A stretch of DNA of 64,000 bases from Haliotis cracherodii (Eukaryota): contig NW_027266264.1 in the NCBI RefSeq assembly GCF_022045235.1, positions 39,990,001 to 40,054,000 of the forward strand. The letters are read 5' to 3'. This document shows positions 1 to 55,605 of this stretch, one piece after another. How positions within the stretch are numbered: position 1 is the stretch's first letter; the number at the start of each line of letters is the position of its first letter. The notes beneath the pieces were generated by a model. The model worked only from the letters and a program-made list of their open reading frames with translations, was not told the origin of the DNA and searched no databases. The translations under genes and the position numbers were made by a program.

Positions 1-865
1 TTCCTACGTAGTAGGCACTATTGTCCACTAGTCCCAGGACCACGCGTTTTGGTAATTGGCCACCGATGAGGTGATCCTTGTGAAAGTCCCTACCGCCTCT
101 CGGGATGTCATGGGCAGTCACATGCACACGTGAAAGGGGATACTTGGCAGTCACCCCAGCGTTCAGACTGGACACGTGTGTTTCTCGGACAGCAGGATCG
201 ATGTTGAGTTGACGGACATAGAATTCAGCTTTGGTCAGGGCTAGTTTATAGACACCATCAGCAGCACACATGAAGAAGAACTCATCGGGACTTCGTAGCA
301 ATTCCAGTTTCATAGGGACACTGTCCAGCAGATAACGGTCTTGAAGAAACAGGTCACAGTGAAGACGGCCTGTAAGTTCCACTTCTTTGGTGGGTACGAT
401 AAGATCGCGTCGCGTTCTGACACCTGTGTTTCTTGTGTTCGCATCTGCATCAGGATTGAAGACGTCCATTTTACCAGCACTATCGGTGAACCATCCAGGA
501 CATTGAAGGTGAGATGTAAGATGAGGGTAAGTGCCCATGGAGGGTGTGATCTCCAACTGATTGTGTCCCACTTGCAGCCGCACTTCGCGAAACAGGAAAT
601 GCATCACATTGTTGACTGTCGATACGGGGGTATCCGCTAGAACGGTATCCATGCCATCATCTTTCATCACACATAGACATACTCTCAGGTAGCACTGAGA
701 ATCAATGTAAGTGTTCACGGGATTGGAAATGTTAAACTGGAGTGGTCCTGCTACAGAGGGTGGTGCCAAGGGACTATAGCGAATCCACTGACCCTCTTGC
801 ACAGAGGTGGACACAGGGGGTACAGTAAAGAGATCCAACTGGCCCCTTTGAACATTCGCAAGCAT
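1..865 (-). CDS. Polinton major capsid protein (double jelly-roll, hexon-like), 3' part outside window
   Basis: Manual translation from ATG 865 is open to the window edge, so it is absent from the ORF track: MLANVQRGQLDLFTVPPVSTSVQEGQWIRYSPL...LHCDLFLQDRYLLDSVPMKL...AKYPLSRV...GQLPKRVVLGLVDNSAY. This matches Maverick MCP motifs (LDLFxVPP, DLFxQDRYL, GQLPKR). A short in-frame deletion after 'TYP' is likely. Confidence 0.92.
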   Translation of the reverse strand, partial: MLANVQRGQLDLFTVPPVSTSVQEGQWIRYSPLAPPSVAGPLQFNISNPVNTYIDSQCYLRVCLCVMKDDGMDTVLADTPVSTVNNVMHFLFREVRLQVGHNQLEITPSMGTYPHLTSHLQCPGWFTDSAGKMDVFNPDADANTRNTGVRTRRDLIVPTKEVELTGRLHCDLFLQDRYLLDSVPMKLELLRSPDEFFFMCAADGVYKLALTKAEFYVRQLNIDPAVRETHVSSLNAGVTAKYPLSRVHVTAHDIPRGGRDFHKDHLIGGQLPKRVVLGLVDNSAYYVG

Positions 866-953
866 CTCGGCGCATCATGATGATGGATGTTTCACCCTTT
901 TCTCTGCCTTGAAGGACGTCCGGTCAGGTTGAAAGTCTGATGAGGACTGACCT

Positions 954-1320
954 TTAAACCATTTTTCTTTTCCTTTTACGCTGTTTCTGGTGGGAGATGG
1001 TGGTGGTTGGGACGACTTTACGTCTTTTAGGGGGTCTCGGCTCCTCACGTTCCTCCAAGACATCCATCAGGGCTGCTGTGCCACGATGTTTCAGACTCTC
1101 TGACCATTTGCGTTTGCCTGCAACCACATCACTCACCAACCCAGGCAGGATCTTTTTACCCATCTTGAGCACCGATGTTCCGGCAGATTTAAGGAAAGGC
1201 AACGCCATCTTCAAGGCCACTGCCACGTTGATGATATCGTCCATTGTATACTTTGATGCCACTCCCACGCTGGCCAAACTGTCCTCGATTCATATGGTGT
1301 GCCAATGCATGTCCCAACAT
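954..1320 (-). pseudogene. Polinton basic core/membrane-active protein (cupiennin-like), frameshifted near 1215
   Basis: ATG 1320 gives MLGHALAHHMNRGQFGQRGSGIKVYNGRYHQRGSGL. After a frameshift it continues KMALPFLKSAGTSVLKMGKKILPGLVSDVVAGKRKWSESLKHRG with a K/R-rich tail. QRGxG motifs, an amphipathic helix and the position between minor and major capsid genes are typical of this Polinton protein. Confidence 0.75.
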
Positions 1321-1333
1321 GTTGCTTTCTGCG

Positions 1334-2375
1334 TTAGTAGCGGCGTCTGAAGTGAAGTGTCACGATGGCTTTTCCCATTTGAAATGGCACGGGTCGCCCC
1401 GTGTCGTCCATGATTTAGAGTTTAATACCGTCAAAGGAATCATGACGCAACCCAAGGTAGTGAATGTGCTGAGGGCTTTTAATCACCACACTGTCTTGCA
1501 TCATTTTCTTTGACACAGGCACGTAGATCAGCAAGGGAGCCATCGTATTTCCCACAATTTGATCTTCGACCAGGTTGGTGTAAATGTACACAGTATCAAA
1601 TCCTGACAGACGATTCGCTTTTGTGTCACCTGTGATTTCCACATAGCCACCGGTCATGGGAGTAGCCCCCACTTGCCAATGGGCCAAGGCAGTCAAGGGA
1701 ACGGGCGTCTCTGTGTCGGTTTTATAGTCCTCCTCACCGAGGAGCGGTAGTTCAACAAATCCGAGCATTCTCGAGAGTGGACTTGATCACTTCAGTGGAA
1801 TAGAGTGGTCCACCAGTATTTCCCATGAGAGGATGATTGATTGCTACTTCTTGAGGGGCTTGGAATCGCACCTTTCCATCTTCAAGCATGTCAAATCGAA
1901 GACTATCTGCGTGATACTTGACATCAATGACAATCCGTCTCCCATCACTCTGGACGCTGTCTGAGGGCTGTTCTTTCAAGACATCCGTAATATGTTCCTG
2001 AATCAAACGGTTGACGGTTTTCACCAAATCTTCAGATGAATAGACGCCTTTCTTGATAGGAATCTTCTTGCTTTCATAATGGACGACACCATACTGTGGG
2101 TGTGGTATAGCGCTCCCCACGCTTTCATACACAAGGGTGTCTTTTTTCAGTTTGAGGTTCAGCGCAAACCAGTCAAAGGGTGGGGCGACGTTGTACCATG
2201 TCATCGGAAAGTGAACTTCGCTGACGCCCACCTCCCACTGTTGACGGTCCAGATGCAGAGGATAAGGCAACTTGATTTCATACGCATTGACAGTGTTGTT
2301 TTGATAGATGTCCATCGAGGCATCACTGGGCAGGGTCATGTAAAAGTCTTGTTTCGAAAAAAAGGTGGCAGCCAT
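1334..2375 (-). pseudogene. Polinton minor capsid protein (penton-like), frameshift near 1760 and premature TAA at 1415-1417
   Basis: N-terminus FYMTLPSDASMDIYQNNT...WEVGVSEVHFPMTWYNV. C-terminus YIYTNLVEDQIVGNTMAPLL...GIKL*IMDDTGRPVPFQMGKAIVTLHFRRRY* (TAA 1334-1336). Both ends are hallmark Maverick minor-capsid motifs. Confidence 0.9.
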
Positions 2376-2386
2376 GATGACATGAG

Positions 2387-2788
2387 CTAAGGTATAAAAC
2401 TCTGGGTGGATGAGGTATCAAGTTGAAGTCTTCTGGTGGACGGGGTCGTCGTGGGTATGCCTGGTGAGGCGGCCAAGGTGGGTGGTGAAAGTATGTATCT
2501 CAAACAACTGGAGAGCAGGGCTGTCCACAACTGTTTCTCTCCGTGATCCAAGGCCAACTGTACCATGCCCATAATGATCACGCCATATATCACAAAGATC
2601 TGAGCAAAAAACACGACTTCACTGCGGGGTAACAACATGCCAAAACAACACCAAGGTGAGTGTCGGCGCTGGTGATGACGTGGTGCAGCAGCAAGGGAGG
2701 GTTCATCGGTACCCACGGATGCTGAGAGGCTTCTCTGCAGAGGTGATGATGGTGGTGGTGGCGGTTCTGTCATCGTGTGTGTCCACAC
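2387..2788 (-). CDS. Small Polinton membrane protein (two hydrophobic segments)
   Basis: RSEVVFFAQIFVIYGVIIMGMVQLALDHGEKQLWTALLSSCLRYILSP resembles a conserved small TM ORF of invertebrate Polintons (recalled, not searched). It lies between integrase and minor capsid. Confidence 0.7.
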   Translation of the reverse strand: MWTHTMTEPPPPPSSPLQRSLSASVGTDEPSLAAAPRHHQRRHSPWCCFGMLLPRSEVVFFAQIFVIYGVIIMGMVQLALDHGEKQLWTALLSSCLRYILSPPTLAASPGIPTTTPSTRRLQLDTSSTQSFIP

Positions 2789-2818
2789 TCTGAATGAGTC
2801 TGAGAGACAGCGTGTTCC

Positions 2819-4066
2819 TTATTTTATCTGTAAATGATCTGCAGGGATCCACGAATTAAAACTGGCAGGGTAGCCAGTCCATTTCACCAAGACCTCTTCT
2901 TGACCCTGTTTCGGTCCTGGACGTCTTTTCAGCACGCGATCCATGGCATACACGTCTGTTTTCAAGATGGGTTGTATTTCTTCAGGGTAAAAAGTTCCTT
3001 GGAGGACTTCACCATGATCATCTTTGATCCGATACCCAGGAGGTGTTCTCCCTGTCACCAACAGTTCAGTGGTCCAATTGGGAAGATGACCTTTCTCAAA
3101 GGTGCCTTTGGTTTTGTTCAGACGTACACGGTTGCCCGGCAGTAAAAGAGAGGGTGATTTTGTCTTGGGGGACGACAGTCTTTGTGTTGTTATTTTCTTT
3201 TTGCGCTGAAGCCGTTGTTGTTGTTGTTTTTCCTCCATGTAGTCTAACACCCAAATTTCTGACAGGGGATCTCCTGGGAGGACGTCCACAGGTCGCTGGC
3301 CAATGGTCCGATGCACACGACGGTTGTACGACTTGATCAACTGGGGTAAGACTTTCAAATAGTGTCTGGTCCCATGCTGTGTAAAGTATCGCCACATTTT
3401 ATTAGTCCTTTGAAACCGTTCCACCACGACTGCTTTCGTTTCAGGATTTTGACTGGTGTAGAAATGAATGCCATGCTTCGTCATGAGTGCCTGGAAAGGA
3501 CGGTTGACAAATTCTCTGCCTTTGTCTGTTTGCAATTGAGCAGGGAGTCGATATTTGGCTTGTTGCATCAGCAAGGCTTGAAAACCTTCGGTCAAAGCAG
3601 AACTGCTCTTGGCCTTCAGGGGTTGCACCCATGCCATCTTTGAAAACACATCGATCACGCACAGTAGATATTTGAATCCTTCGTTGTCGTCTTGAAAGGC
3701 AATCATGTCACTCAAGTCTGCTTGCCACAGTTCATCGACCCCTCCCACACGATAGTGGTCTGTCGGAAAGGAGCGTCTGGCTGGTTTGTGCAAGGTGTAG
3801 GTACTTTTGGTTTGCAACCAACGCTTGGTTTGACTTTGCGATGGCATGGTTTTCTTCTTGCTTTTACTGGTTCTTGCATCTTGAGTGTGGATGCATGCTG
3901 CTTTCCACAAAGGTCGCCAGCTTCCAAAACTTGCAGGATGTTCAGGATGAAAGTAAGTTTTTTCCAACCAGGCCGTCCAAAGGGAAGTAGGAAATCCTTT
4001 GTTTTGATTCCCTGCAGCAGCAGCAGAGGGAAGAATGCGCTGTCGCGTCTTGGTCTGTCGCTTCAT
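2819..4066 (-). CDS. Polinton retroviral-like (rve, DDE) integrase with C-terminal chromodomain
   Basis: YTLHKPARR, WQADL, CVIDVFSK, LQTDKGREF, VVERFQRT (D-D-E triad), FEKGHLPNWT, and chromodomain EVLVKWTGYPASFNSWIP. The ORF is open, with probable small in-frame deletions. Confidence 0.95.
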   Translation of the reverse strand: MKRQTKTRQRILPSAAAAGNQNKGFPTSLWTAWLEKTYFHPEHPASFGSWRPLWKAACIHTQDARTSKSKKKTMPSQSQTKRWLQTKSTYTLHKPARRSFPTDHYRVGGVDELWQADLSDMIAFQDDNEGFKYLLCVIDVFSKMAWVQPLKAKSSSALTEGFQALLMQQAKYRLPAQLQTDKGREFVNRPFQALMTKHGIHFYTSQNPETKAVVVERFQRTNKMWRYFTQHGTRHYLKVLPQLIKSYNRRVHRTIGQRPVDVLPGDPLSEIWVLDYMEEKQQQQRLQRKKKITTQRLSSPKTKSPSLLLPGNRVRLNKTKGTFEKGHLPNWTTELLVTGRTPPGYRIKDDHGEVLQGTFYPEEIQPILKTDVYAMDRVLKRRPGPKQGQEEVLVKWTGYPASFNSWIPADHLQIK

Positions 4067-4153
4067 TTCTCTGTCGCTTCATTTCTCTCAGACTGATGCC
4101 ACTTCCCACATGAATGGGCTTTTTATAGAGAAGGGGAGAGATTTATTTTTTTC

Positions 4154-5107
4154 TTAGGTGGTGCTAAAGGGTATCCATGAACCTCGCCTGTTGATGAATC
4201 TGTCCTGTTTGGTATCAGATGGAGGTGGAGTCATCAACCATGGGGTTGACATCACATCTTTTTCTTCCTCCACTGGTGGATCCAGTTGCCACGAAGGAGG
4301 TTGGGGTGGCATCTCATCTTCTTCTTCTTCTTCCGCTTGTGGATCCACCTGCTGCCTCCTCCTTCTTCTCTCTTTGTGACTTTGCGGGGAGAACTTGGGG
4401 AGGGAGAACTGGGTTATGGGTTTTTCTGGTGTGGCATGAGGATGGTGTTGCTGCTGCTGCTGCTTCTGCATCCATTGCCATTGTTGAGGATTTCCAATTA
4501 TTTCATGAGGGACATGACTGTTGGCCAAATGGTGACTCAAAATTGTCCAACCTGCAGGCCACTCTTTGGTTTTACGGTGAAGCACTAAATCGTTGATCAA
4601 GTCCACCATGTGTGTGCCAGGGACAGGTTTCTCTTCCACGGTCAGGGTTCCCTCTGGAGTCCAACTCAAGTCTGGATTGTTTTGAATCCTTGTCATCAAA
4701 TTCATGGCTTTACTGGACATGGCTTTAGGAACACTCATGACCACTTCATCTATCACTTGTTGAGGAGGGGCAGGTCTACCTGTGGTGTCCATTGTTGATG
4801 GTGATGACGGTGGGTGTGGTGGTGTCACTTTGGGTTGTAGTGGTTTGATGGTGTTGTTGTTGCTGTTGTTGTTGTACTGTTGGCGCTGCAACTCTAGCAT
4901 GTGCTGCAACAGTTGGTTGTATTCTTGTTCCCGCATGTGAAAAGGCTGCTGTGACCTCTGCATCAACGCGTCCATCTCTTCCAAATTTTGGAGACGTTTC
5001 TTTTCCAAGAGAGAGGTATGAAGTGTCTGACGATGACGTTGTTTGGTGGCCTGTAGACTTTGCCATGTGTCTTCAGGCACCAACACCATCTTGCGTGCGT
5101 ACTTCAT
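4154..5107 (-). CDS. Conserved Polinton protein of unknown function, Q/P-rich
   Basis: Starts MKYARKMVLVP (ATG 5107). Core SVPKAMSSKAMNLMTRIQNNPDLSWTPEGTL...GTHMVDLINDLV...GWTILSHHLANSHVPHEIIGNPQQW resembles the gene commonly upstream of Polinton integrase (recalled). Confidence 0.75.
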   Translation of the reverse strand: MKYARKMVLVPEDTWQSLQATKQRHRQTLHTSLLEKKRLQNLEEMDALMQRSQQPFHMREQEYNQLLQHMLELQRQQYNNNSNNNTIKPLQPKVTPPHPPSSPSTMDTTGRPAPPQQVIDEVVMSVPKAMSSKAMNLMTRIQNNPDLSWTPEGTLTVEEKPVPGTHMVDLINDLVLHRKTKEWPAGWTILSHHLANSHVPHEIIGNPQQWQWMQKQQQQQHHPHATPEKPITQFSLPKFSPQSHKERRRRRQQVDPQAEEEEEDEMPPQPPSWQLDPPVEEEKDVMSTPWLMTPPPSDTKQDRFINRRGSWIPFSTT

Positions 5108-5156
5108 GGTGGCACACCACAAACTGACCCCAACCTTCCTGGTGTCAGACCATTTA

Positions 5157-5483
5157 TTACGTTCCTCCAAACAAAGAGGCTAAAGCAGAACCAATAAGAG
5201 GGATGAGTCCTAATAATCCTCCGCCATGTTGAAGAAGTTTACGTTTCTTGCTTAGAGGTACTTGTTTTTTCATGAGCGTGTTCAAGACTTTACCGTGTCA
5301 TTGCAAGTTTTGACGTTGAGTCGTGGTCATGGGAATATTGCCTGCATACAAGTTCACCACACATTCACAAAGGGCACGGATGAGATCGGTAGGAGCATGT
5401 TTGAGAATGGCTTTGCGCATCGCTGGAGCAGCAGCACACAAATGACACAGAGCGTGTTTCTGTTTCCTGAGGCACTGAGACAT
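5157..5483 (-). pseudogene. Polinton small basic pX-like virion protein with QxGG motif and hydrophobic C-terminus; internal TGA at 5298-5300
   Basis: Read-through translation: MSQCLRKQKHALCHL...RKAILKHAPTDLIRALCECVVNLYAGNIPMTTTQRQNLQ*HGKVLNTLMKKQVPLSKKRKLLQHGGGLLGLIPLIGSALASLFGGT*. The LCECxxNxxxGNIP and QxGG-hydrophobic tail are family signatures. Confidence 0.8.
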
Positions 5484-5543
5484 CTTCCTTGCATGGATGT
5501 GTTAGCCTGAATGAAGCACCTGATCTGCAGCTTCTCTCTTTTA

Positions 5544-6434
5544 TCAGGCAGTGGCAGGAGGGAGTTGCAACTGTTGATCTGCCTTCTTGGACTTTCTTTG
5601 GGTCCGCATGTGCACCAATCGTCTGAGAGCATCAGCTTGATATGCTTTCATGACATTTTCATGAGCCTTTACTTTTGGCTTAGTAGTCATCGTTGTTGTT
5701 GTTGTAGGTCGGTGGCGCCTGGTGTTACCCTGTTTGAGGAGTGGTGCTTGAAGATAATGTTGCCATTGCAACAGAATGCGTGTCAAGACCCCTGCAAGTG
5801 TTCCAATACCACTGCGTTGCATCAGGTAGTCAAGACGTTCATCCAGACGTGGATCGACAAGTTTAGTCAGGGTATCATTGTGTCTCTGCAACCACGTCTT
5901 ATGTTGAGCTTTCAATGGGATGTGTCCTGCTCTCAGGTTCCGCGCGACAATCACAAACCACTGCAAAAGACGATTTCTTCCTTTGACGGCAAGGGTTGTC
6001 GCATCTCTTGTCTGAAAAATAGACGGCCTCTTGTCTTTTTTCTTCTTTCATGGGGGCTCCTGCTGCTGCAGACGTTGAAAGCGTTGAAGATCTAGTGGGG
6101 GTGAGGGTGCTGATGGGGAAGGCCGTTGTTGTTCCTGACGATGCTTGTTCAAGGGTACCATCGAAGAGTAAGGCGGACCTGGGGTGGACTTCTGGTGCTG
6201 CTGCTGTTGCTGTTGCAGAGGTTGAAAGCATTGAAGATCATGTGGTGACGAGGGTGGCGAAGGTGCTGATGATGTTGAAGGACGTGGTGATGGCTGCTGC
6301 TGACGATGCATGTTCACGGGTACCATTGAGGAGGGAAACGATCCTGGTGGTGAAGGAGTCTTGTGAAATACAGAGGTCACAAGTCCCTGTAGCGATGAGG
6401 GGGAGACCATATTGTCATAGACATCATTCACCAT
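5544..6434 (-). pseudogene. Divergent second pX-like domain fused to a P/S/Q-rich duplicated N-terminus; internal TGA at 6048-6050
   Basis: ORFs 6048..6434 and 5544..5966 are in the same frame, separated by one TGA (EPP*KKKK). The C-part RNLRAGHIPLKAQHKTWLQRH...MQRSGIGTLAGVL aligns by eye with the neighbouring pX-like gene. Confidence 0.55.
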
Positions 6435-6556
6435 CTCTTTGTCTTTGTTCTTTCACTTCGTAGGATGAACCTGTTTCCGTCTTTGCCCCATGATGGATGT
6501 AGGTCAACTGAAGGAAGGTCTGAGGGTTCACCTTCTTTTTTGAAAGTCTCTTCATC

Positions 6557-7258
6557 TCATAGGATCGGCACATACACGAGGGGTAATTCGGATCTCGAAA
6601 ACAGGCGGGCGCGTACGCGATGGTCTTGCAACGTGGGCTTCAAGTCCAAGAACAGGTAAGTGTAAGGCTCTCAGGTAGCGTCTTCATAGGCTTCACGCAG
6701 AAAAGGAACTTTGCCTGGAAACACCTGGCGAGCCAGACTGTCGATCTGTGATGCATCTCTCGGATTTTTAAAGAGGACCATGTATTGAGCATTCAGACTG
6801 ATGTTGCGATGTTGTGGCGATTGAGCAAACAAGTTCTGAGTGAGATACAGCACAGATGTGTTTCGATGATGGCTTTTCTTGGTGAACCATCGCAGCACTT
6901 CAGTTTCTTCTTCTTTTGTATTGTCCCCCAGCAAATCATCGATGACCAGCCAATGTGTGGCCACCCCTTTTTCGGGCAAGGCACGATCCGCTTCTTTCAT
7001 GCTGTGGACAAACTCAAGAGCGACCCCTAAACGGTCTGCCATCTCCTCCAGTTCATGATGAAGCGGTTGCCATTCGCTGTACACCCACACGATGCGATGG
7101 GGTGACGTATCCAACACCTCGGGGCGATGCATCTGCTCCATACATGATTTCACAAAGGAACTTTTTCCTGATCCCGTGGGTCCCGCAATGAACATTGTAA
7201 AAGGATGGCGTAGGGTCAAAGGGGTGGTCATGACCTCCTCATCATCATGTGATGCCAT
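6557..7258 (-). pseudogene. Polinton DNA packaging ATPase (A32/FtsK-like); premature TGA at 6671-6673
   Basis: HPFTMFIAGPTGSGKS (Walker A), LVIDDL (Walker B), FTKKSHHRN, YLTQNLF, ISLNAQYMVLFKNPRD, LARQVFP. The conserved tail continues past the stop: EDAT*EPYTYLFLDLKP...VYVPIL*. Confidence 0.93.
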
Positions 7259-7459
7259 CCTGTGTTCTGGCTGACTGACACCAGTCAACTGATCCTTTCA
7301 AGCATGACCTTTCTCTTTTATCTGTTATTTTTTTCTTCCTATCTCTCCCATGACCCATACAATTTCTTATGAAAAAAAAGAAACACAACGGTCGGTCCAA
7401 TTTAGAAAACCGGGGCTCAGACCAAGTGTCGAAACGAACCCATCAGCACGATGCGTTTT

Positions 7460-7501
7460 CGACCAATCAGGAAGCAGGGTTTTGGTGCCTCTCCTATAAA
7501 A
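7460..7501 (+). promoter_or_regulatory. Putative Pol II promoter (CCAAT + TATA) for the divergent small ORF
   Basis: GACCAATCAG near 7461, then CCTATAAAA near 7494, about 55 bp upstream of ATG 7554, which has a good context (CAACCATG). Confidence 0.5.
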
Positions 7502-7553
7502 TGAGCAAAGCCACGCACACCGTCACAGTCGAGCACTGAAGGAGAGATCAACC

Positions 7554-7814
7554 ATGTCGTCTCGATGCAGCTGTCTGACGTGCCAGACCAACAGTCAACA
7601 ATGCCAGGGGAGGATGAAAGTCTATTCGTGGACAATAGTGGGCTACCCACGGGGTGAATCGGAGACTATCCTATCGCAGAGCCCACACTGGTTTAAGAAC
7701 AAGTCTGAGGTTATGGCAGCATTACAACAAACTATTCAACGCGGAATTGACATACCCGACTGTTGGGGTGGTCCATATTATTATCTAGTATCGAGATCAA
7801 GGAAAGTAATGTAA
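7554..7814 (+). CDS. Small Cys-rich Polinton accessory ORF (86 aa), unknown function
   Basis: Intact ORF MSSRCSCLTCQTNSQQCQGRMKVYSWTIVG...PDCWGGPYYY, preceded by CCAAT/TATA and divergent from the ATPase-capsid block. Confidence 0.5.
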   Translation: MSSRCSCLTCQTNSQQCQGRMKVYSWTIVGYPRGESETILSQSPHWFKNKSEVMAALQQTIQRGIDIPDCWGGPYYYLVSRSRKVM

Positions 7815-8074
7815 TCAAGGAGACATCCCTTGTCCAGCTTGTTTCCAGTTTGTTTTCCAACGGCCCTTTTCAAGGCCACCCATCTCACCCAAAAGACAAC
7901 TATCATCCTTTGCTTTGACGACCACCCTCTCTCCCTCCCTTCACCACCACCACCACGTCTATGTTTAGAACCACCACACCCACACCAACCATGGCGATTG
8001 TGTTCACCTTTTACAACCGCTTCCTTGGGTTTTTTTTTTTCCCCCTTCCCTCCCTCCCTCCTCCTGCTCCTCCC

Positions 8075-8315
8075 CCGGAATACGGAGGCGACGCCCTCTT
8101 GAAGGTGCGCGCACCACCGGACACGGAAGCGACGCCCTCTTGGAGGTGCGCGCGCCACCGGAAAACGGAGGCGACGCCATCTTGGAGGCGCACGACATCG
8201 GAAACGGAGGCGACGCCATCTTGGAGGTGAGCACGCCACCGGAAACGGATGAGACGCCATCTTGGAGGCGCGCGACACCGGAAATGGATGCGACGCCACC
8301 TTGGATGCGCGCGCA
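8075..8315. repeat. Subterminal tandem repeat of the Polinton end, about 6 x 40 bp, CpG-rich
   Basis: Unit approximately CCGGAAACGGAGGCGACGCCATCTTGGAGGTGCGCGCGCCA, starting near 8075, 8117, 8158, 8198, 8239 and 8278. Confidence 0.9.
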
Positions 8316-8449
8316 ACTCCCACCATGCCCTGCGCGCATGCGCAGGTCACGTGACCAAACCGAAACCGGATGTGACGTCACAGAGGTCACGTGATCCTCT
8401 CGACCAATCAGAAGCCAGGAGCGGTTCTGGACTGATGTACACAACTACT

Positions 8450-9995
8450 CATACCATGTCGAAGGCTTTGCTGAAGTCCAGAATTACTGCGGCTAGGTAT
8501 TGTCTGTTTAATTGAGCTTTTTTTTATTTCATTTTCCAGTCTTAGAATATGATCTAGACATGAGTGTCCCTTCCTGAAGCCACTTTGGTCAGGTTTTATG
8601 TGGTTGCCAGTTTCAGGGTGATGCATGAGCCTTTTATTAACCATGGCTTCCATAGCTTTGCACATGTTTGAGGTGAGTGAGATCGGTCGATAAGAGTTTG
8701 GTAGGGCTTCGTCTTTCCCTTGCTTTAGCAGCGGGATAACTGCAGCATGTTTCCATGCTTTTGGGACTTCTCCTTTGGACCATATCCTGTTATACAACTC
8801 AGTGAGTAAGCCTTTGGTTTGATCAGGTAGGTTTTTCAATATCTCGTAGCTGGTTGTGTCAAGACCAGGTGCCATGCCTTTTCTATGTTGTATCACATCA
8901 TCAAACTCTTTCACAGTAAATGGTATATTGTATACCAGATGCTTGCTTTGCCGACGTTTTGAGGTCTTAAGCATAACCATTTTTTCCTGTTTGAATTCTT
9001 CGCCGCTATTTGTGTTGCTGCTGACAGATGAGAAGTGCTCAGCTAGAATGTTGGCCTTTCCTTTGACTGTATGGACGTTGGCTAACTTTGGAATTTTGGT
9101 GGGTTTACGCTCACCCCTGATTGCGTGTATTTTGCTCCAGACTGTTTTAGCATTTGTTTTCTCATTAAGGGATTTGCAGAAGGTCTGCCATGACTCTGTT
9201 TTAGAATCGTCTATGAGTTGTCTTACTTTTGTCCTGGCTGCTCGGACTTGGGCGAAGGCTGATTTATCCCTTTTTTTACCTATTTAGGGCTTTCTTTCTC
9301 ACTCTCCTAGCTTTTGCTATTTCCCTGTTCCACCATGGTACCGGAGTTTTGGCAGTTTTGTGGTCTTTCTTGGAATTGATTTTTCAGCTGCGGCAATAAT
9401 TACTGAGGTGAGATTTTGGCAAAAAAGATCAGGATTATCCGAGACAATTTCTGAGGACTTGAATGATAAACATTCCTTCCTGAATTTAGGCCAATCAGCT
9501 TTTGCATAGTCCCATGTGGGCTGAGGATTGGGCTGTTCCTCTAATTGTGGTGGGCTACCTATGCAGTTGAGTATAGGAAGGTGATCGCTTCCCCACGTGT
9601 TGTCATGGACTTGCCATTGGCAATGTGAGGCGAGGTTTTTGGTGGCAATTGTGAGATCAATTGAACTCCACGTGTTGTGGACTTGGTCATAACGTGTGTG
9701 ACTGCCATTGTTCAGAGTTATGAGATTGTTGTCCTCAACCCATTTCTCTACCATTTTGCCGTATATGCATGAATCATTCCTGTCTTCCCAAAGAGGGCTG
9801 TGGGCTTTAAAGTCACCAAGGATTATCCAAATTTTGCCTACTATTTGAGCTAGTCTTGTTAGCTCTCCCATGTTCGTTTCATGGGTAACCCTGTGATATA
9901 TGTTAGCTATGCGTAATTCGTTGCCATTTGCCAGTTTTAGGGAGATTACTTGGGTTTCAAGGTTTCCTACGGTTGATTCGATATCTGTTTTAGGT
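8450..9995 (-). mobile_element. Degenerate non-LTR retrotransposon (APE endonuclease + RT N-half; I/Nimb/Jockey-like), cut by the Polinton
   Basis: GDFKAHSPLW, SSIDLTI, GSDHLPI, WDYAKADWPKFR; APGLD, WKHAAVIPLLKQGK, SYRPISLTS, QSGFRKGHS, LDFSKAFDMV (interrupted at 8450). Frameshifts are present. Confidence 0.9.
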
Positions 9996-10639
9996 ACAGC
10001 TGTTTTATATAAAAAACATCAATTTATTTTATAAGCTCCTTGTAAGGTCGCAACTTTTGAAGTAATGTTGTCACAAGTAATCTCCGAGCTCAACATGCCA
10101 CGTTTGACTCAAAAATATAAAACAAACATATGTTGTGTTTTCATTTTAAATCATATAAGCTTAATCTCCTCATCTTTTAACTGTAAGCCTCTTAGTTGCT
10201 ACCATCCGTTCACCCCTTAATTAGTGAAAGTAGATGCGCCCAGTGAGTAGTCATGGTTGAGTGGTAGCATATAATCGACCGATCGGGAAAAACCCAGACA
10301 CTTTTTTCTACAAATTGAAACATTTTAATTTCAGAAATTCGACGGATCGGGTGGTCACCGTCAAAGCAGACCAGCGCCAACACGGACAAGACACTTTGAT
10401 CAAAACGTCTTAGTTTTTTTAAACGGATCACTGTGGTCAAAACTGACCAGAGAAATATCGGATTGAAAATACGAATTAGTTGGGGTTTTTTATTTCATAC
10501 TTTCCTTGTAGTTACTATAGTTGTGTGTTGATATGTTATCGACTCTTCTGACATATTCCTATACTTGTTTGTATAACATGGTGGCAGTTTGTCAGAAATG
10601 GGTGGGTGGGTGGTAGGGGGTGGGTGATGTGTGTGTGTG

Positions 10640-26558: not shown

Positions 26559-27460
26559 GTTCTGTAATTACATGGTCACAAGCCGTGGACATACAGAAGG
26601 CGGTCAGGACGTTCTGTAATAACTTGGTCACAAGCCGTGCACATACAGAAGACGGTCAGGACGTTCTGTAATTACATGGTCACAAGCCGTGGACAAACAG
26701 AAGACGGTCAGGACGTTCTGTAATTACATGGTCACAAGCCGTGGACATACAGAAGACGGTCAGGACGTTCTGTAATTACACGGTCACAAGCCGTGGACAT
26801 ACAGAAGGCGGTCAGGACGTTCTGTAATAACATGGTCACAAGCCGTGGACGTATAGAAGGCGGTCAGGACGTTCTGTAATTACATGGTCACAAGCCGTGG
26901 ACAAACAGAAGACGGTCAGGACGATCTGTAATTACATGGTCACAAGCCGTGGACAAACAGAAGACGGTCAGGACGATCTGTAATTACATGGTCACACCCG
27001 TGGACATACAGAAGATGGTCAGGACGTTCTGTAATTACATAGTCACAAGCCGTGGACATACAGCAGGCGGTCAGGACTTTCTGTAAATACATGGTCACAA
27101 GCCGTGGACATACAGAAGACGGTCAGGACGATCTGTAATTACATGGTCACAAGCCGTGGACATACAGAAGACGGTCAGGACGTTCTGTAATTACATGGTC
27201 ACAAGCCGTGGACATACAGAAGACGGTCAGGACGTTCTGTAAGTACATGGTCACAAGCCGTGGACATACAGAAGGCGGTCAGGACGTTCTGTAATCACAT
27301 GGTCACAAGCCGTCGACACACAGAAGGCGGTCAGGACGTTCTGTAATTACATGGTCACAAGCCGTGGACATACAGAAGACGGTCAGGACGATCTGTAATT
27401 ACATGGTCACAAGCCGTGGACATACAGAAGGCGGTCAGGACGTTCTGTAAGTATATGGTC
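26559..27460. repeat. Minisatellite, 52-bp unit, about 17 copies
   Basis: Unit GTTCTGTAATTACATGGTCACAAGCCGTGGACATACAGAAGACGGTCAGGAC, head-to-tail with no spacers. Confidence 0.97.
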
Positions 27461-31600: not shown

Positions 31601-34600
31601 TAACATTTCAGCGTCTGCACGTTGTTTTTTTTATGCGCCCGTCACATCACATGTAGAGAATGACATCATGCCTTTGGGAGAATGCTTGTTCTAACAGACG
31701 TATCATAAAATTGCCATGTAATATTATGTTACATAGATAAGATATTATGGGAACATGAAATGATACGCAAGAAGATCATTCTAGGAAAATAATGCTATCG
31801 CGAGGATCGACCTGGAGAACTCGGTGATCACCAGCCTTTACGCAATGGGTAACAAGTCCTGGGAATTCCTCACCTTGGACGCAAGCGACAGAGACAACGG
31901 TGAGCACAATGACGTAGACTCAAATTGTGTTGGATTTCGTTTGGCTTACTCACACCAGTTCTGCTTTACGTGAAACTAAGTATACCAGAACTGTTTAACA
32001 CAAGACTACATGTAAACTTGTTTTTATTAAGTTTATTCGTCTGCTATTAGCGGAGAGATTGACAATATGGGCTGTAGTCAGGATACACATACATCCCTTG
32101 TTCCTCAACTGATTGGCTGATTCCCAACTTCCAAGAGGTGTATTTGTATCCTGACTACAACCCATATCGTCAATCTCTCTAATATACACGGGTTGGGAAT
32201 CACCCAAAGGATCTGACAGTTTATGAAATAAACGATTTACAGTCGAGAAATGTCGTAGATCGATTATCGCATACACCACCTCGGTGACTTTAATACAACA
32301 TTGGTGACACAAACTTGTCTGTTGTTGGAGTCAGTATACATACACTGATCTTGTACATGTTTGTATATGACAGTCACTCAAGGAGCAAGATTTCTGGATA
32401 TTGTACTTATAGCACGGGGATTGCAGGTATCGCGATGGCATCGAGGAAAATCCGCAGCTTGTACCAGCCCGACAAAGTCGCCTTCTTCACATGGGGGGCT
32501 GATATACCTTACCTGGTGACAACTGACGAGGGGAGACCAACCAACATCCCCGGGGTCACCTTCCAAGACTACGCTAGAGCGGCATCACTGAGTATGTACA
32601 GTCGACTTCAATAACAATATTTCCGTTGATACTCGTCAACGTAACATAAAAAAAAACATGCACCAGTATCTTATTTTAAAGACTTGTCCACAAGGTGTCT
32701 ATCTACCTCGAATATAGGTGATACTGACTGATCACCATATGCACTCACTGTCCACAAGGTGTCTATCTACTTCGAATATAGGTGATACTGACTGATCACC
32801 ATATGCGCTCACTGCCCACAAGGTGTTTATCTACCTCGAATATAGGTGATACTGACTGATCACCATATGCGCTCACTGTCCACAAGGTGTCTATCTACCT
32901 ATAATATAGGTAATACTGACTGATCACCATATGCGCTCACTGTCCACAAGGTGTCTATCTACTTCGAATATAGGTGATACTGACTGATCACCATATGCGC
33001 TCACTGTCCACAAGGTGTCTATCTTCCACGAATATAGGTGATACTGACTGATCACCATATGCGCTCACTGTCCACAAGGTGTCTATCTACTTCGAATATA
33101 GGTGATACTGACTGATCACCATATGCGCTCACTGTCCACAAGGTGTTTATCTACCTCGAATATAGGTGATACTGACTGATCACCATATGCGCTCACTGTC
33201 CACAAGGTGTCTATCTACCTATAATATAGGTGATACTGACTGATCACCATATGCGCTCACTGTCCACAAGGTGTCTATCTACCTATAATATAGGTAATAC
33301 TGACTGATCACCATATGCGCTCACTGCCCACAAGGTGTCTATCTACTTCGAATATAGGTGATACTGACTGATCACCATATGCGCTCACTGTCCACAAGGT
33401 GTCTATCTACCTATAATATAGGTAATACTGACTGATCACCATATGCGCTCACTGTCCAAAAGGTGTCTATCTACCTCGAATATAGGTGATACTGACTGAT
33501 CACCATATGCGCTCACTGTCCACAAGGTGTCTATCTTCCACGAATATAGGTGATACTGACTGATCACCATATGCGCTCACTGTCCACAAGGTGTCTATCT
33601 ACTTCGAATATAGGTGATACTGACTGATCACCATATGCGCTCACTGTCCACAAGGTGTTTATCTACCTCGAATATAGGTGATACTGACTGATCACCATAT
33701 GCGCTCACTGTCCACAAGGTGTCTATCTACCTATAATATAGGTGATACTGACTGATCACCATATGCGCTCACTGTCCACAAGGTGTCTATCTACCTATAA
33801 TATAGGTAATACTGACTGATCACCATATGCGCTCACTGCCCACAAGGTGTCTATCTACTTCGAATATAGGTGATACTGACTGATCACCATATGCGCTCAC
33901 TGTCCACAAGGTGTCTATCTACCTATAATATAGGTAATACTGACTGATCACCATATGCGCTCACTGCCCACAAGGTGTCTATCTACTTCGAATATAGGTG
34001 ATACTGACTGATCACCATATGCGCTCACTGTCCACAAGGTGTCTATCTACCTATAATATAGGTAATACTGACTGATCACCATATGCGCTCACTGCCCACA
34101 AGGTGTCTATCTACTTCGAATATAGGTGATACTGACTGATCACCATATGCGCTCACTGTCCACAAGGTGTCAATCTACCTATAATATAGGTGATACTGAC
34201 TGATCACCATATGCGCTCACTGTCCAAAAGGTGTCTATCTACCTCGAATATAGGTGATACTGACTGATCGCCATATGCGCTCACTGTCCACAAGGTGTCT
34301 ATCTACCTCGAATATAGGTGATACTGACTGATCACATATGCGCTCACTGTCCACAAGGTGTCTATCTACTTCGAATATAGGTGATACTGACTGATCACCA
34401 AATGCGCTCACTGTCCACAAGGTGTCTATCTACCTATAATATAGGTAATACTGACTGATCGCCATATGCGCTCACTGTCCACAAGGTGTCTATCTACCTC
34501 GAATATAGGTGATACTGACTGATCACCATATGCGCTCACTGTCCACAAGGTGTCTATCTTCCTCGAATATAGGTGATACTGACTGATCACATATGCGCTC

Positions 34601-48048: not shown

Positions 48049-51000
48049 ATGCACGTGTGTTTGGTGGGAATGGTTGCCCTAGTGGGCGTGGCCTATGGTG
48101 TGGTGGTACTGAAAGAGGCATCCTATCTGAGACTCCCCAACCGTAACGGCCAGTACGTCGTCAACAGCAGAACAGCCAGGGAGAGCGCCTATGATGATGC
48201 TAGGAGTTACCTCTACGTTGTTGGTGAGTCCAGCATTTCATATACCTTGCTGTTCTGCTGATGCAGTTTTGGATACATTATTAAAGAATACGAGCGACAG
48301 ATGCCCCTTTTTTACATGTCAGTTTTGTTTTGTCAGGTCGTGACACGGCTATGTTGCACATCATCTCCCTCGCTGACCCCGCCAACCCGCAGGAAGTCTA
48401 CACTTACAATTTCAACGTCGCCGCCGACGGCCGTCCTCTGGATGTGGAGCTGTGTCGGGCGGCAGGGGTTACACCCACACTGGCCGTCACCTTTGACGGC
48501 CAAGATTCTGTGGCTTTTGAGGGACATCTGGTTCTTTATAATCTGTTTGAGAGCAGCTCAGATACACTTACTCCCCTCAACCCAACAGATCCCAGGATTA
48601 CCGGTCAGTTGAATATCTTGGTAACTTCATGTAGAAAGTCCCATCACCATTTTCAGAACACAATGCAGATTTAACTACAATCGTAACTTATCAACACTGA
48701 AATGTCGCTCAATATATGCGAATATAGACTTTGCCGTAGCAAAAGGTGAATGGACAGACATGCCAACATCTGGTGCCTTAAGCGTCTCTTAGGTAATCAG
48801 ATGTCAGGTCCATATTTCACCTTCGTTTTCATCATGTCATATTATGACAGCTTTGAATAGCTAGTAAAAAGAACGTAATCGTATTGTGACCTGTAATATG
48901 ATCTCTTCCCGTCCAGTGGGAGCACATCCTGACAACATGAAGTTCACTAGCGACTGCCGTCGTCTGGTCGTATCTAACGAGGGGGAGCCCAGGGTCGTCG
49001 GTGGCACCTTCTATGACCCCGATGGGACAGTTTCTGTGGTTACATTCTCCACAACGCCTGGCGCTTTACCAACAGTCACAACCATCGACTTCAAGAAATA
49101 CGACGAACAGAGTGAACTTGTGTAAAGCACAAAGGACATTTTCCATTTTATATGAAAAAACACACTTTAAACAGCATTAAAAGATATTTATAATCGATAA
49201 CAGAAATATTTCTTTTTTATTAATGTTTATTTCAGCGGCATTTACTGGTGTTTTTCAGCACGCTTCTGAATCAAGGTGTCCGCTACTGGCTTCGCCGTGA
49301 CCCCAACGATCCCTCCACCATAATCCAGTTCTCCCAGAACGTGGAGCCGGAGTATGTGGCCATCTCACCTAGCAATGGGTTTGCATACATCACCTTGCAG
49401 GCATGTCTTATTTTCTAACTCAGAAAGCATGGACGTACACGTCAGGCTGCATACACTACACGCTACTTGCTAACAAAACTCTTATATCTGTTTAAACATA
49501 GGAAAACAATGCCATTGCAAGGATTGATCTGGAGAACTCTGTGATCACCAGCATATACCCGATGGGCAACAAGAGTTGGGAGTTTTTAAACATAGATGCC
49601 AGTGACAGAGACAATGGTGAGTTGTATGATAAATGATTAACCCTGTTGATTTTCTACGTTGTAGTGAACTTATAAGGCCAACGATAACGGCTATGAAAAT
49701 GATCTAAGATCCTTCTTTTTAAGGGCAGATTGTTTGAGTATCAAAGGGAGGTAAAAGAAAACAAGGGAATACTTCATACAACAGTGTAGATACACATAAT
49801 GATGGTTTACTGTCGCGTTGACATACATCTGACAGTTTACGCATTACTGTCGCGTTGGCATACATATAACGATTTATGCATTACTATCACATTGACATAC
49901 GTTAAAAGTTTATGCATTACTGTGGCGTTGACATACATATAACGGTAATGAATTACTGTTGTGTTGACATACATGTAACAGTTTATGCATTACTGTCGCG
50001 TTGACATATAACGGTTTACGCTTTATTGTCGAATTGACATACATATAACAGTTTATGCATTACTGTGGCGTTGACATACATATAATGGTTATGCATTACT
50101 GTTGTGTTGACATACATATGACAGTTTACGCATTACTGTGGCGTTGACATATAACAGTTTCTGCATTACTGTGGCGTTGACATACATGTATGTAATGGTT
50201 ATGCAGTACTGTGGCGTTGACATACATGTGTGTAATGGTTATGCAGTACTGTTGTGTTGACATACATGTGTGTAATGGTTATGCATTACTGTGGCGTTGA
50301 CATACATGTATGTAATGGTTATGCATTACTGTGGCGTTGACATACATGTATGTAATGGTTATGCATTACTGTGGCGTTGACATACATGTATGTAATGGTT
50401 ATACATAACTGTGGCGTTGACATACATGTAAGTAATGGTTATGCATTACTGAGGCGTTGACATACATGTGTGTAATGGTTATGCATTACTGTGGCGTTGA
50501 CATACATGTATGTAATGGTTATGCATTACTGTGGCGTTGACATACATGTGTGTAATGGTTATGCATTACTGTGGCGTTGACATACATGTATGTAATGGTT
50601 ATGCATTACTGTGGCGTTGACGTACATGTATGTAATGGTTATGCATTACTGTGGCGTTGACATACATGTAAGTAATGGTTATGCATTACTGTGGCGTTGA
50701 CATACATGTATGTAATGGTTATGCATTACTGTGGCGTTGACATACATGTATGTAATGGTTATGCATTACTGTGGCGTTGACATACATGTATGTAATGGTT
50801 ATGCAGTACTGTGGCGTTGACATACATGTGTGTAATGGTTATGCATTACTGTGGCGTTGACATACATGTATGTAATGGTTATGCGGTACTGTTGTGTTGA
50901 CATACATATGACAGTTTACGCATTACTGTGGCGTTGACATACATATAGCGGCGTACGCATTACTATCGCGTTTACATACATGCAAGAGTTTATGCATTAC

Positions 51001-53586
51001 TGTCGCGTTGACAAACATATAAGTGTTTACGCATTACTGGCGCGTTGACGTACATACAACGGTTTACGCATAACTGTCGCGTTGACATACATATAATGGT
51101 TACGCATTACTGTCGTGTTGACATACAGTTTACACANNNNNNNNNNNNNNNNNNNNNNNNNNNNNNNNNNNNNNNNNNNNNNNNNNNNNNNNNNNNNNNN
51201 NNNNNNNNNNNNNNNNNNNNNNNNNNNNNNNNNNNNNNNNNNNNNNNNNNNNNNNNNNNNNNNNNNNNNNNNNNNNNNNNNNNNNNNATCGCGATGGCAT
51301 CGAGGAAAATCCGCAGCTTGTACCAGCCCGACAAAGTCGCCTTCTTCACATGGGGGGCTGATATACCTTACCTGGTGACAACTGACGAGGGGAGACCAAC
51401 CAACATCCCCGGGGTCACCTTCCAAGACTACGCTAGAGCGGCATCACTGAGTATGTACATTTCGGCAACTAGGTCAGTGTGAAAGGTGGGTTCGGGGTGG
51501 TGTTGGGGGTGGAGGTGGGGTGGGGTGGTTGGGGGTTGCATAAATTGATGCATAAATTGTGAGATGCTCATAATTCCCCAAGGATGAAAATATAATTCAG
51601 GAAGCAAAGTGAAATACCTATATTCCCACACAAGGTATATTTTCATGCTCTTCGTGAAAAATGATAGTTTGCCCCCGGCGCATGTCGGTAATCGGGGAAA
51701 GCTCGTTCTAATGAGACGAGACATGAAGACCAATTCAAATCATTGTCTAACGTATGCTCCTGCCAGGTTACGTTTTACTGAAGCGAATATGAATATACTC
51801 CTCACCAAGCGTTTAAATGTTCATTATGAATCTCTAACAGATATTGTATTCTATACGGTTCTATTCTGTTTTCAGCATGGAATGTAAATGATCCTGAACT
51901 GAACTCTCAACTGAAATCAAACGCCGAACTTGGTAATTAAATATAACAATACGTGTTTTGCATGTGGTACACATAGCCATGCCTACAGTAGCACTGCTTG
52001 GCATACGAGATACACAAACTATCTGGTTGATATTCTAACTGCTGTAACAGTATGCCGACAGAACCAGTGAAACCTCTTTCCAAACTTTCAAAATGGGCGG
52101 TGCTGCATTTTCCTTTACTTTCAACCAGACGCACCAATTTTCTTTAGTTCCAGTAGGTGGTCGCAGGTGATATCCAATACTGTTGACATTGATTGTGTCG
52201 TGCAGGTCGCCTGTACGTCTCTAATGTTGACGGGTTTGATGACACGCCGAACGTTCCCTATGCTTTCGGTGGACGTGGGTTCTCAATCTGGAACACACAG
52301 TCGATGGAGCGAACCTGGGAGAGCGGTGACGAGCTGGAGAGGTACAGTCGCCAGTACTTCCCTAATACATTCAATGGTAACTGCGCCACCTTCTCGCAAA
52401 CCCCCGCGCAAGAGATGGACGCCAGATCCACGTGGATGGTGAGTTGTTTCCCGCTCCACAGACAGTCAGGAGATGCACCTGTGACTAAACCTCATCATAC
52501 TGACTGACTGAGTATGGTTTTACGCCGCTTTTAGCAATATTCCAGCAATATCACGGCGGGGGACACCAGAAATGGGCTTCACACATTGTACCCATGTCGG
52601 GAATCGAACCCGGGTCTTCGGCGTGACGAGCGAATGCTTTAACCACTAGGCTACCCGACCGCCCCAAACCTCATCGTAAGCTAAATAAAACAAATCTGGA
52701 AGGTTACGCTGCTTATTTTTGAAGATATTGATAAATATGGTTTTGTAATATTAAAATTGTTCACCTAGGGTCCAGAAGTAAACTCTGTAGCCATTGGAGA
52801 TTTCGGAGGGCGTTCAGTGATGGTTCTTGGGAGCGGCAGGAACGGCCTACTCTACGTATATAGCTTACAGCCAACCATCAGTAACCCCACCCCAGAGTTC
52901 CAGAGTGTGCACAGAGCCGGGGAAATAGATGCAACCTGGACAAATCTGTACGCCAGGGAGGACATGGGAGATGCCATTATATCTGACATCAAGTAAGTCT
53001 CACCACTCAGAGGTGAGGTGAGGTGAAATAGGTTTTAACTTNNNNNNNNNNNNNNNNNNNNNNNNNNNNNNNNNNNNNNNNNNNNNNNNNNNNNNNNNNN
53101 NNNNNNNNNNNNNNNNNNNNNNNNNNNNNNNNNNNNNNNNNNNNNNNNNNNNNNNNNNNNNNNNNNNNNNCTGATTGCACTAGTTTTAAAGTGCAAGCCC
53201 CCTGAGACACCATTTCAAAGTTTATCATGAATACCCCACTCAGATACAGTAGATGGACTCCAAGTCGGTCACTGCTTGTCTTATGCTCCTAATGCCGACT
53301 GCCAAGGTCGGTAACAATTTTAGCGTCTTTTAACGCTTGACACAGCCGGGGATCGCATCTACGCGGTCACCAATCAGACATAGTGATCACTCTATGATGA
53401 TTTCAGTACAGTGTACGAATCTAAAACCTGACAAGTTAAGTGTGTTTGTCATCACTGTGTTTCAGAATTTCGTCAGTGGGAACCCCTATCGTAATCGTGA
53501 CTTCTGAGGCCAGTGGAAGCATATCAGTGTACACGCTTGCTGACGAGACATGGCCTGCACGGACACTGGACGATTCTCAGGAATAA
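48049..53586 (+). CDS. msp130: msp130-like secreted protein, copy B, 10 coding exons, about 567 aa
   Basis: Exons 48049-48223, 48337-48603, 48917-49121, 49259-49400 (GC donor), 49502-49616, about 51286-51450 (acceptor hidden in N gap), 51876-51932, 52206-52438, 52769-52992, 53466-53586. Exon sizes 1-9 equal those of copy A. AATAAA at 53633. Confidence 0.88.
49805..51136. repeat. Minisatellite, 40-bp homogeneous core with shorter diverged flanking units, in intron 5 of copy B
   Basis: Unit ATGCATTACTGTGGCGTTGACATACATGTATGTAATGGTT. Confidence 0.96.
52497..52665 (-). mobile_element. Full-length young tRNA-derived SINE with 10-bp target-site duplication, in intron 8 of copy B
   Basis: Reverse strand: GGGGCGGTCGGGTAGCCTAGTGGTTAAAGCATTCGCTCGTCACGCCGAAGACCCGGGTTCGATTCCC (A/B boxes), body, then (CAGT)n tail. 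Flanked by AAACCTCATC at 52487-52496 and 52666-52675. Confidence 0.92.
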
Positions 53587-53779: not shown

Positions 53780-55605
53780 ATACTGCGCGAGTGGAACTGG
53801 TGTATGTACCATGGTAACAACGGGGAGATACAAAGTAGGTCGTACACTACACGAGTGGAACTGGTGTATGTGTCATGGTACAGACGGGGAGATACAAAGT
53901 AGGTCGTGCACTACTCGAGTAGAACTGGCGTATGTACCATGGTAACAACTGGGAGATACAAAGTAGGTCGTACAATAAACGAGTGGAACTGGTGTATGTA
54001 CCATGGTAACAACGGGGAGATACGAAGTAGGTCGCACACTACACGAGTGGAACTGGTGAATGTTCCATGTTTCCATCGGGGAGATACAAAGTAGGTCGAA
54101 AACTACTCGAGTGGAACTGGTGTATGTACCATGGTAACAACGGGGAGATACAAAGTAGGCCGCACACTACACGAGTGGAACTGGTGAATGTTCCATGTTT
54201 CCAACGGGGAGATACAAAGTAGGTCGTACAATTAACGAGTGGAACTGGTGTATGTACCATGGTACAAACGGGGAGATACAAAGTAGGTCGCACACTACAC
54301 GAGTGGAACTGGTGTATGTACCATGGTAACAACGGGGAGATACGAAGTAGGTCGTACACCACTCGAGTGGAATTGGTGTATGTACCATGGTACAAACGGG
54401 GAGATACGAAGTAGGTCGTACACTACTCGAGTAGAACTGGTGTATGTACCATGGTAACAACGGGGAGATACGAAGTAGGTCGAAAACGTCTCGAGTGGAA
54501 CTGGTGTATGTACCATGGTACAAACGGGGAGATAGAAAAGTAGGTCGCACACTACACGAGTGGAACTGGTGAATGTTCCATGTTTCCATCGGGGAGATAC
54601 AAAGTAGGTCGAAAACTACTCGAGTGGAACTGGTGTATGTACCATGGTAACAACGGGGAGATACAAAGTAGGCCGCACACTACACGAGTGGAACTGGTGA
54701 ATGTTCCATGTTTCCAACGGGGAGATACAAAGTAGGTCGTACAATAAACGAGTGGAACTGGTGTATGTACCATGGTACAAACGGGGAGATACAAAGTAGG
54801 TCGCACACTACACGAGTGGAACTGGTGTATGTACCATGGTAACAACGGGGAGATACGAAGTAGGTCGTACACCACTCGAGTGGAATTGGTGTATGTACCA
54901 TGGTACAAACGGGGAGATACGAAGTAGGTCGTACACTACTCGAGTAGAACTGGTGTATGTACCATGGTAACAACGGGGAGATACGAAGTAGGTCGAAAAC
55001 GTCTCGAGTGGAACTGGTGTATGTACCATGGTACAAACGGGGAGATAGAAAAGTAGGTCGCACACTACACGAGTGGAACTGGTGAATGTTCCATGTTTCC
55101 AACGGGGAGATACAAAGTAGGTCGTACACTACTCGAGTGGAACTGGTGTATGTACCATGGTACAAACGGGTGGATACGAAGTAGGTCGTACACTACAAGA
55201 CTGGAACTGGTGTATGTACCATGGTTACAACTGGGAGATACAAAGTAGGTCGTACACTACACGAGTGGAACTGGTGTATGTACTATGGTAACAACGGGGA
55301 GATACAAAGTAGGTCGAAAACTACTCGAGTAGAACTGGTGTATGTACCATGGTACAAACGGGTGGATACAAAGTAGGTCGCACACTACACGAGTGGAACT
55401 GGTGCGTGTACTATGGTAACAACGGGGAGATACAAAGTAGGTCGAAAACTACTCGAGTGGAACTGGTGTATGTACCATGGTACAAACGGGTGGATACAAA
55501 GTAGGTCGCACACTACACGAGTGGAACTTGTGCATGTACCATGGTAACAACGGGGAGATACAAAGTAGGTCGTACACTAACCGATTGGACCTGGCGTATG
55601 TACTA
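53780..55605. repeat. Minisatellite, about 64-bp unit, about 28 copies, with 513-bp higher-order periodicity
   Basis: Unit CGAGTGGAACTGGTGTATGTACCATGGTAACAACGGGGAGATACAAAGTAGGTCGTACACTACA. Near-identical spurious ORFs recur at a 513-bp offset (54039/54552, 54295/54808). Confidence 0.96.

Follow-up and report, generated by a model that had tools for sequence, protein, structure and literature searches.

The stretch analysed here, referred to as the window, comprises 64,000 nucleotides of the abalone Haliotis cracherodii (contig NW_027266264.1, positions 39,990,001 to 40,054,000), and its first 8449 bases carry most of an integrated Polinton-like element, here called segment A, which is described together with a second, polymerase-bearing element, segment B. 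Nine co-oriented genes lie on the minus strand of 1..8449, accompanied by a small open reading frame (ORF) on the plus strand and an intact terminus, in the order given by an original prediction made from the letters of the window. An A32-like packaging ATPase (6557..7258, stop near 6673) is followed by a 320-aa protein (5544..6491, stops near 6455 and 6050), a 109-aa basic protein (5157..5483, stop near 5300), a conserved hypothetical protein (4154..5107), a retrovirus-like integrase with a C-terminal chromodomain (2819..4066) and a 130-aa protein with a hydrophobic stretch (2387..2773), the last three with open frames. Then come the predicted minor capsid protein or penton (1334..2375, frameshift near 1784, stop near 1417), a small basic, amphipathic protein (954..1320, frameshift near 1212) and the 5' two thirds of the predicted double-jelly-roll major capsid protein (MCP; 1..880, frameshift near 843), which runs off the window, as had been said, for about 410 bp. 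The lesions were indeed few, although five stops and three frameshifts were counted where four and two had been announced, and the protease gene outside the window is broken too. The divergent plus-strand ORF (86 aa, 7554..7814) is typical of segment A and of small elements that consist of terminal inverted repeats (TIRs) only. Ahead of the divergent genes stands a non-coding unit (7339..7500) with visible CCAAT and TATAAA motifs, which is repeated in segment B at 69-75% identity (blastn) and is likely a promoter.

The ATPase matched Pox_A32 above the Pfam cut-off (E 1e-6), and the integrase matched rve (E 1e-12) and Chromo (E 3e-7), with three catalytic-region motifs present and a best match at 62% in Haliotis asinina. 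Capsid and penton were modelled with AlphaFold from natural sibling frames rather than from the broken window copy. The capsid model (predicted local distance difference test, pLDDT, 94; RefSeq label of the protein F54H12.2-like) returned the Sputnik MCP in Foldseek with an E-value of 6.5e-15, along with the double-jelly-roll capsids of Paramecium bursaria chlorella virus 1 (PBCV-1) and mavirus, while the penton model (pLDDT 87) returned the mavirus penton (E 2.2e-9) and adenovirus penton bases. On these models the capsid is a double-jelly-roll MCP and the minor capsid protein a single-jelly-roll penton, and the proposed Polinton/adintovirus-type virion module was borne out. Among 15 segment A copies, the frames of the ATPase (234 aa) and of the integrase (at least 415 aa) are open in 10 each, and those of the penton (348 aa), the protease (192 aa) and the small basic protein (127 aa) in 6 each. 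The predicted protease gene follows the MCP, as fits an adenain-like protease; its Peptidase_C5 match (E 0.037) falls below the cut-off, and African swine fever virus S273R was matched at E 0.57 with the His and Cys motifs aligned. The small basic, the hydrophobic and the pX-like proteins matched no Pfam or NCBIfam family. The 320-aa protein may be pX-like and the product of 954..1320 cupiennin-like, as named in the original prediction, and the 109-aa protein may be of the pX/GasderminX type. Beta adintoviruses are marked by a divergent OTU-PolB and by GasderminX and cupiennin accessory genes, names that follow the text of PMC8502044. The element was also correctly called young and molluscan, as the window copy and a young sibling share about 97% identity and the best named matches are Haliotis proteins: H. 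cracherodii entries (capsid 99%, polymerase 96-98%), H. rufescens at 79-91% and H. asinina at 62-72% (integrase and capsid).

The right TIR of the window element (7841..8449) is made of 41-bp tandem units, is related to the termini of segment B and ends in ACTACT exactly at position 8449, where the right copy of the target site duplication (TSD), CATACC, follows at 8450..8455. Leftward of the window lie, in turn, the remainder of the capsid gene, the broken protease gene and roughly 2 kb in which no long ORF occurs; there the element ends in a second AGTAGT terminus, followed by the left TSD copy CATTCC (3107-3113 bp left of the window), which agrees with the right one at 5 of 6 bases. The element thus spans 11,556 bp, with an AGTAGT terminus at each end and its left end about 3.1 kb beyond the window's left edge. 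It is inserted into a host long interspersed nuclear element (LINE) coding for an endonuclease and a reverse transcriptase (8456..10018, minus strand), whose reverse transcriptase frame picks up again past the left terminus, so that LINE halves flank the insertion on both sides. The original prediction had expected protease, left TIR and pPolB to the left of position 1 and had named the leftward extension as the check on which it stood or fell. The predicted protease and the left TIR are present within 3.1 kb; the pPolB gene is missing between the two termini, and the view of the stretch as one arm of a 20-kb Polinton has to be abandoned. Truncation by the window and a simple internal deletion of this copy were both ruled out, as sibling copies have the same layout. 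The left arm of the window copy (L001) is about 1.1 kb longer than usual (7050-8620 in L001) and holds a 340-bp direct duplication and sequence in common with B and TIR-only copies.

A genome search with the terminus returned TIR pairs with interiors unlike the window, encoding pPolB, BIR domains and a zinc knuckle; a polymerase on a separate family with the same ends is more unusual than what had been claimed. For the comparison of the two families, 195 stretches were taken around ATPase, capsid, integrase and polymerase matches in one assembly, each genome search scoring the best 40 candidates (of 62-172 for gene queries) and many older loci being taken on one side only. Segment A, about 10.3 kb and mostly 10.2-10.6 kb long, reads small ORF, ATPase, two basic proteins, hypothetical protein, integrase, hydrophobic protein, penton, small basic protein, capsid and protease. 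Segment B, about 11.5 kb and mostly 11.1-11.9 kb, reads BIR, two ORFs of no named family, pPolB and BIR, the BIR genes being of the IAP type, and no integrase, ATPase or capsid gene was present in its copies. In the gene content of young copies the essential genes are split between A and B without overlap. The B polymerase matched PF03175 (E 3e-35), shows the exonuclease and polymerase motifs, and has a frame of about 1415 aa in 9 of 21 copies; its FLGCFWHGC motif is presumably the VSR insert reported for mollusc pPolB2 (Haliotis rufescens included). Both families have (AGT)2 termini and 6-bp TSDs. Both ends with a TSD agreeing at 5 or more of 6 bases were seen at 11 of 17 A loci (the window copy with 5 of 6, ten others perfect), and a perfect TSD at 19 of 25 B loci despite the lack of an integrase on B, the script having picked the best-matching pair among motif-defined ends with a slight bias towards matches. 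Two A and four B copies have TIR pairs free of mismatches over 300 terminal bases.

The young layer contains about 16 A copies and at least 53 polymerase (B) loci, a ratio of about 3 B to 1 A; since three A copies on C6 are host duplicates with shared flanks, the independent young A insertions number about 14. All 16 best integrase matches (94-100%) were of class A, and the polymerase gene lay inside none of these 16 loci. Conversely, 53 places matched the polymerase at 94% or more; at 2 of these an ATPase, capsid or integrase match occurs at a distance of up to 50 kb, and in both cases the polymerase belongs to a B element bounded by termini and a TSD of its own. The 105 locus clusters comprise 47 with A genes only, 26 with the polymerase only, 7 with polymerase and ATPase, 13 with both modules, 7 with ATPase and B accessory genes, 4 TIR-only and 1 of another family; the 13 with both modules resolve into 3 neighbours with a TIR in between and 10 old relics. 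No young copy with both modules was found among the copies scored. Candidate tandem full-length elements at C23:51.5M, C78:60.2M and C12:2.92M were rejected, as a TIR separates the modules. The A stretch is also present in public sequencing runs under four organism labels, and a 706-bp contig from organism C crosses the A-specific junction from the ATPase start to the small ORF; the A layout therefore occurs beyond this assembly as well. None of the public sequencing runs listed as holding the A stretch was an RNA run; for the B junction no bridging contig occurred among the matches listed, and 97-98% of the X18 raw reads continued into unlike sequence.

The ends of the two families appear to have evolved together. 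A tree was built from the left ends of 11 A and 21 B copies after the removal of four rows that belonged to two mis-paired loci. The two classes interleave in it, with 8 and 9 label changes, and in none of 200 bootstrap trees was either of them monophyletic. Between the most similar A and B termini there are 2 differences in 330 bases, and terminal indel variants pair across A and B. Shared substitutions also speak for selection: for changes common to at least 3 loci in split-form copies, the ratio of nonsynonymous to synonymous polymorphisms (pN/pS) was 0.17 for the ATPase, 0.19 for the integrase, 0.24 for the capsid, 0.39 for the penton and 0.33 for the polymerase, against 0.88-0.97 for private changes (polymerase 0.61). 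The conserved hypothetical protein gave 0.31 for shared changes, and in these copies the purifying signal was not significant for pX1, the hydrophobic protein, the protease and the small ORF. Young A copies alone, pooled, gave 0.30 for shared and 0.85 for private changes (p 1e-4). The shared substitutions indicate that capsid, integrase and polymerase are under purifying selection.

Ten decayed relics combine, on a single strand and with no TIR in between, the polymerase, usually the ATPase, and genes for the virion or the integrase; in its alignable parts the polymerase DNA of these relics shares 75-80% identity with that of young B. As some old copies have BIR after the protease, the ancestral order, which we infer to be POL, X, ATPase, pX, hypothetical, integrase, penton, capsid, protease, BIR, would end in BIR. 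In an intermediate layer the order is POL, X, ATPase, BIR, and young B retains both flanks of the ATPase about 150 bp apart. In the polymerase DNA tree (midpoint root) the relics form a ladder, followed by ATPase-bearing B and then by 22 ATPase-less B copies in one clade (100/100); the protein tree, rooted on five distant polymerases, gave the same order, with H. rufescens proteins nested in the B group. The two polymerase trees were built after the removal of 2 rows out of 40 and 2 out of 28, respectively; L162 and L175 owe the label one-piece to their subfamily alone, and L136 and L174 belong to a single element. In the ATPase tree, from which 8 of 49 rows were removed because they were short, old A and ATPase-bearing B copies are interleaved.

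Taken together, the gene contents, ends and selection patterns make it probable that segment A (capsid and integrase) and segment B (polymerase) are mutually dependent halves of a two-segment virus derived from a Polinton. The protein-primed polymerase of B would copy both linear DNAs, starting at the shared terminal origins; the integrase of A would insert both segments, and its ATPase and capsid would package both. Replication in one nucleus would allow termini and genes to be exchanged between them. Somewhat less firmly, though still on the favourable side, we consider the system a bipartite double-jelly-roll dsDNA animal virus that arose from two complementing Polinton deletion mutants and left a datable genomic series that starts with a one-piece ancestor, continues with halves that were still partly redundant and ends with two segments that depend fully on each other. 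Loss of the block between ATPase and BIR would have turned the one-piece ancestor into B, which later lost the ATPase; loss of the polymerase arm would have produced A, and the one-piece form would then have vanished from the genomic record.

Several observations weigh against this interpretation. The comparison of A and B draws on one genome assembly, from which particles, free DNA and complementation are inferred, and a full-length copy may exist unscored, unassembled, in other individuals or as free virus. The selection signal of the young polymerase is borderline (pN/pS 0.40 for shared and 0.60 for private changes, p 0.06), and BIR1, BIR2, X1 and X2 were not significant in the young layer. 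None of the relics was obtained with its two termini plus a TSD, so that the term one-piece rests on gene order and strand. In the protein tree one ATPase-bearing B copy is deepest and a single B clade was rejected, in a test confounded by the omission of two nested H. rufescens proteins from the tested group. In their degree of decay the relics roughly equal the oldest split A and B copies, hence one-piece and split forms coexisted; only split forms appear in the young layer, and the split probably arose more than once rather than in one clean event. Finally, other Polinton families are present in the same genome, with capsids 26-46% identical, and could supply functions to A and B.

Among the alternatives, the one that survives best, though we regard it as unlikely, is that A and B are two successful defective derivatives, each mobilised by a full-length helper from their own family, which would be exogenous, polymorphic or unassembled. 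Full-length relics exist in this genome, TIR-only elements have also been mobilised in it, and the polB-less polintons of Pieris, according to the available text of 10.1101/2025.02.07.637071, stayed active beside complete relatives. Such a helper should insert as well, however, and the census of young copies in this assembly contains none; genes supplied by a helper should decay, yet changes in the capsid and integrase of A show purifying selection in the young layer; and the genes lost from A and B complement each other exactly, including the loss from B of an ATPase that was once duplicated. Considerably less probable is a two-component transposon without a virion stage, maintained by germline complementation and co-inheritance, with capsid genes that have an intracellular role or hitch-hike. 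It would accord with evidence that is genomic throughout, no particle or free-ended DNA having been seen, and with the constant presence of both classes in the host genome, which makes co-infection unnecessary. The purifying selection on capsid, penton and ATPase argues against it; selection of this kind was an argument for virion formation in vertebrate Mavericks in the portion of PMC8097293 available. That A and B are functionally unrelated and borrow from other Polinton families, their shared ends reflecting ancestry only, is very improbable, because despite the existence of other families with open capsid frames the terminal variants change in step across A and B, A/B chimeras exist, and the one other-family locus examined gave no match to the termini of A and B.

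The genomes of Polintons, adenoviruses and virophages are regarded as undivided. One standing idea on the origin of segmented and multipartite viruses is complementation between defective genomes, for which evidence is scarce since the intermediates vanish. The abalone intermediates are integrated and can be ordered by decay; therefore the order of gene loss, the copy ratio and the exchange of termini become measurable. Surveys that demand pPolB and integrase in one element would miss systems of the A/B type.

The combined gene set of A and B, in which the adenain-like protease is a putative member, is that of Polintons/Mavericks and Beta-type adintoviruses, which, in the accessible parts of PMC8502044 and PMC8097293, have hexon, penton, adenain-like protease, packaging ATPase, rve integrase and pPolB, and also share inhibitor-of-apoptosis (IAP) accessory genes, (AGT)2 termini, a 6-bp TSD and intronless core genes. 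In the same parts of these sources nearly all adenain-bearing contigs carry PolB, integrase and ATPase together, whereas the abalone set is divided over two separately integrating elements, and segment A departs from the Polinton definition in that pPolB is not within the same TIR pair and stands on segment B instead. In Polintons the terminal protein that serves protein-primed replication is part of pPolB itself (PMC11071308, in its available text). For the mollusc pPolB2 Polintons, the available text of Jeong et al. (10.1101/2023.08.22.554363) describes no split genome. The polB-less polintons of Pieris mannii (Pannagram, 10.1101/2025.02.07.637071) resemble A in being TIR-bounded, having lost polB and still amplifying, but their complete relatives persist and no reciprocal polymerase-only partner is described in the text available. 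Bidnaviruses and the Drosophila Vesanto virus are likewise replicated by pPolB and segmented, with terminal repeats common to the segments (available parts of PMC8502044 and PMC8363768); these, however, have ssDNA and a parvovirus-type capsid, while the A/B system has dsDNA, a double jelly roll and an integrase, and both of its segments integrate. The segmented pPolB viruses described in the text available are of this ssDNA, bidna-like kind. Like B, transpovirons and linear pPolB plasmids are capsid-less linear replicons derived from the Polinton-related virus group; according to the portion of PMC11071308 available they parasitise giant viruses or exist as plasmids, whereas the partner of B is the other half of its own putative ancestor and dependent in turn. 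No bipartite Polinton was found in the literature, as far as its available text goes; Repbase, Dfam, subscription papers and the supplementary maps of PMC8502044 and 10.1101/2024.03.25.586562 lay outside that scope and could hold one.

Some further features of the two families were noted. Terminus bases 7-25 are highly variable between copies and nearly always the same at the two ends of a copy, as panhandle repair would give. Older A copies (L099 6805-7198; L132; L180; L182; L189) have the 3' end of the protease duplicated in inverted orientation in the right arm, as if the right end had been regenerated by copying the left end. The zinc-knuckle ORF on B (L086 5064-5663) has a start that resembles the small ORF of A, and L097, L102 and L045 are chimeras in which A genes (penton, small basic protein, ATPase) are joined to the BIR gene of B. 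Elements that are small or filled with cargo (L004-L005, L012-L013, L015, L016) share the termini, the small ORF and the 6-bp TSDs but have no core gene; they are non-autonomous parasites of the A/B system. The TSD GACATG is identical at three different insertions (L019-L020, L014, L058-L059), which may point to a preferred target.

A second young Polinton family, at L194-L195 and four other places, has a 437-aa capsid frame that is 26% identical, with five equal matches. It possesses an integrase, an ATPase and a BIR gene, and queries derived from A and B returned no polymerase or terminus within 20 kb. Elsewhere in the window, long tandem arrays occupy 26559-27460, 32685-35437, 40271-41693, 50053-51127 and 53788-55603, with units of 52, 64, 31, 40 and 64 bp, respectively.

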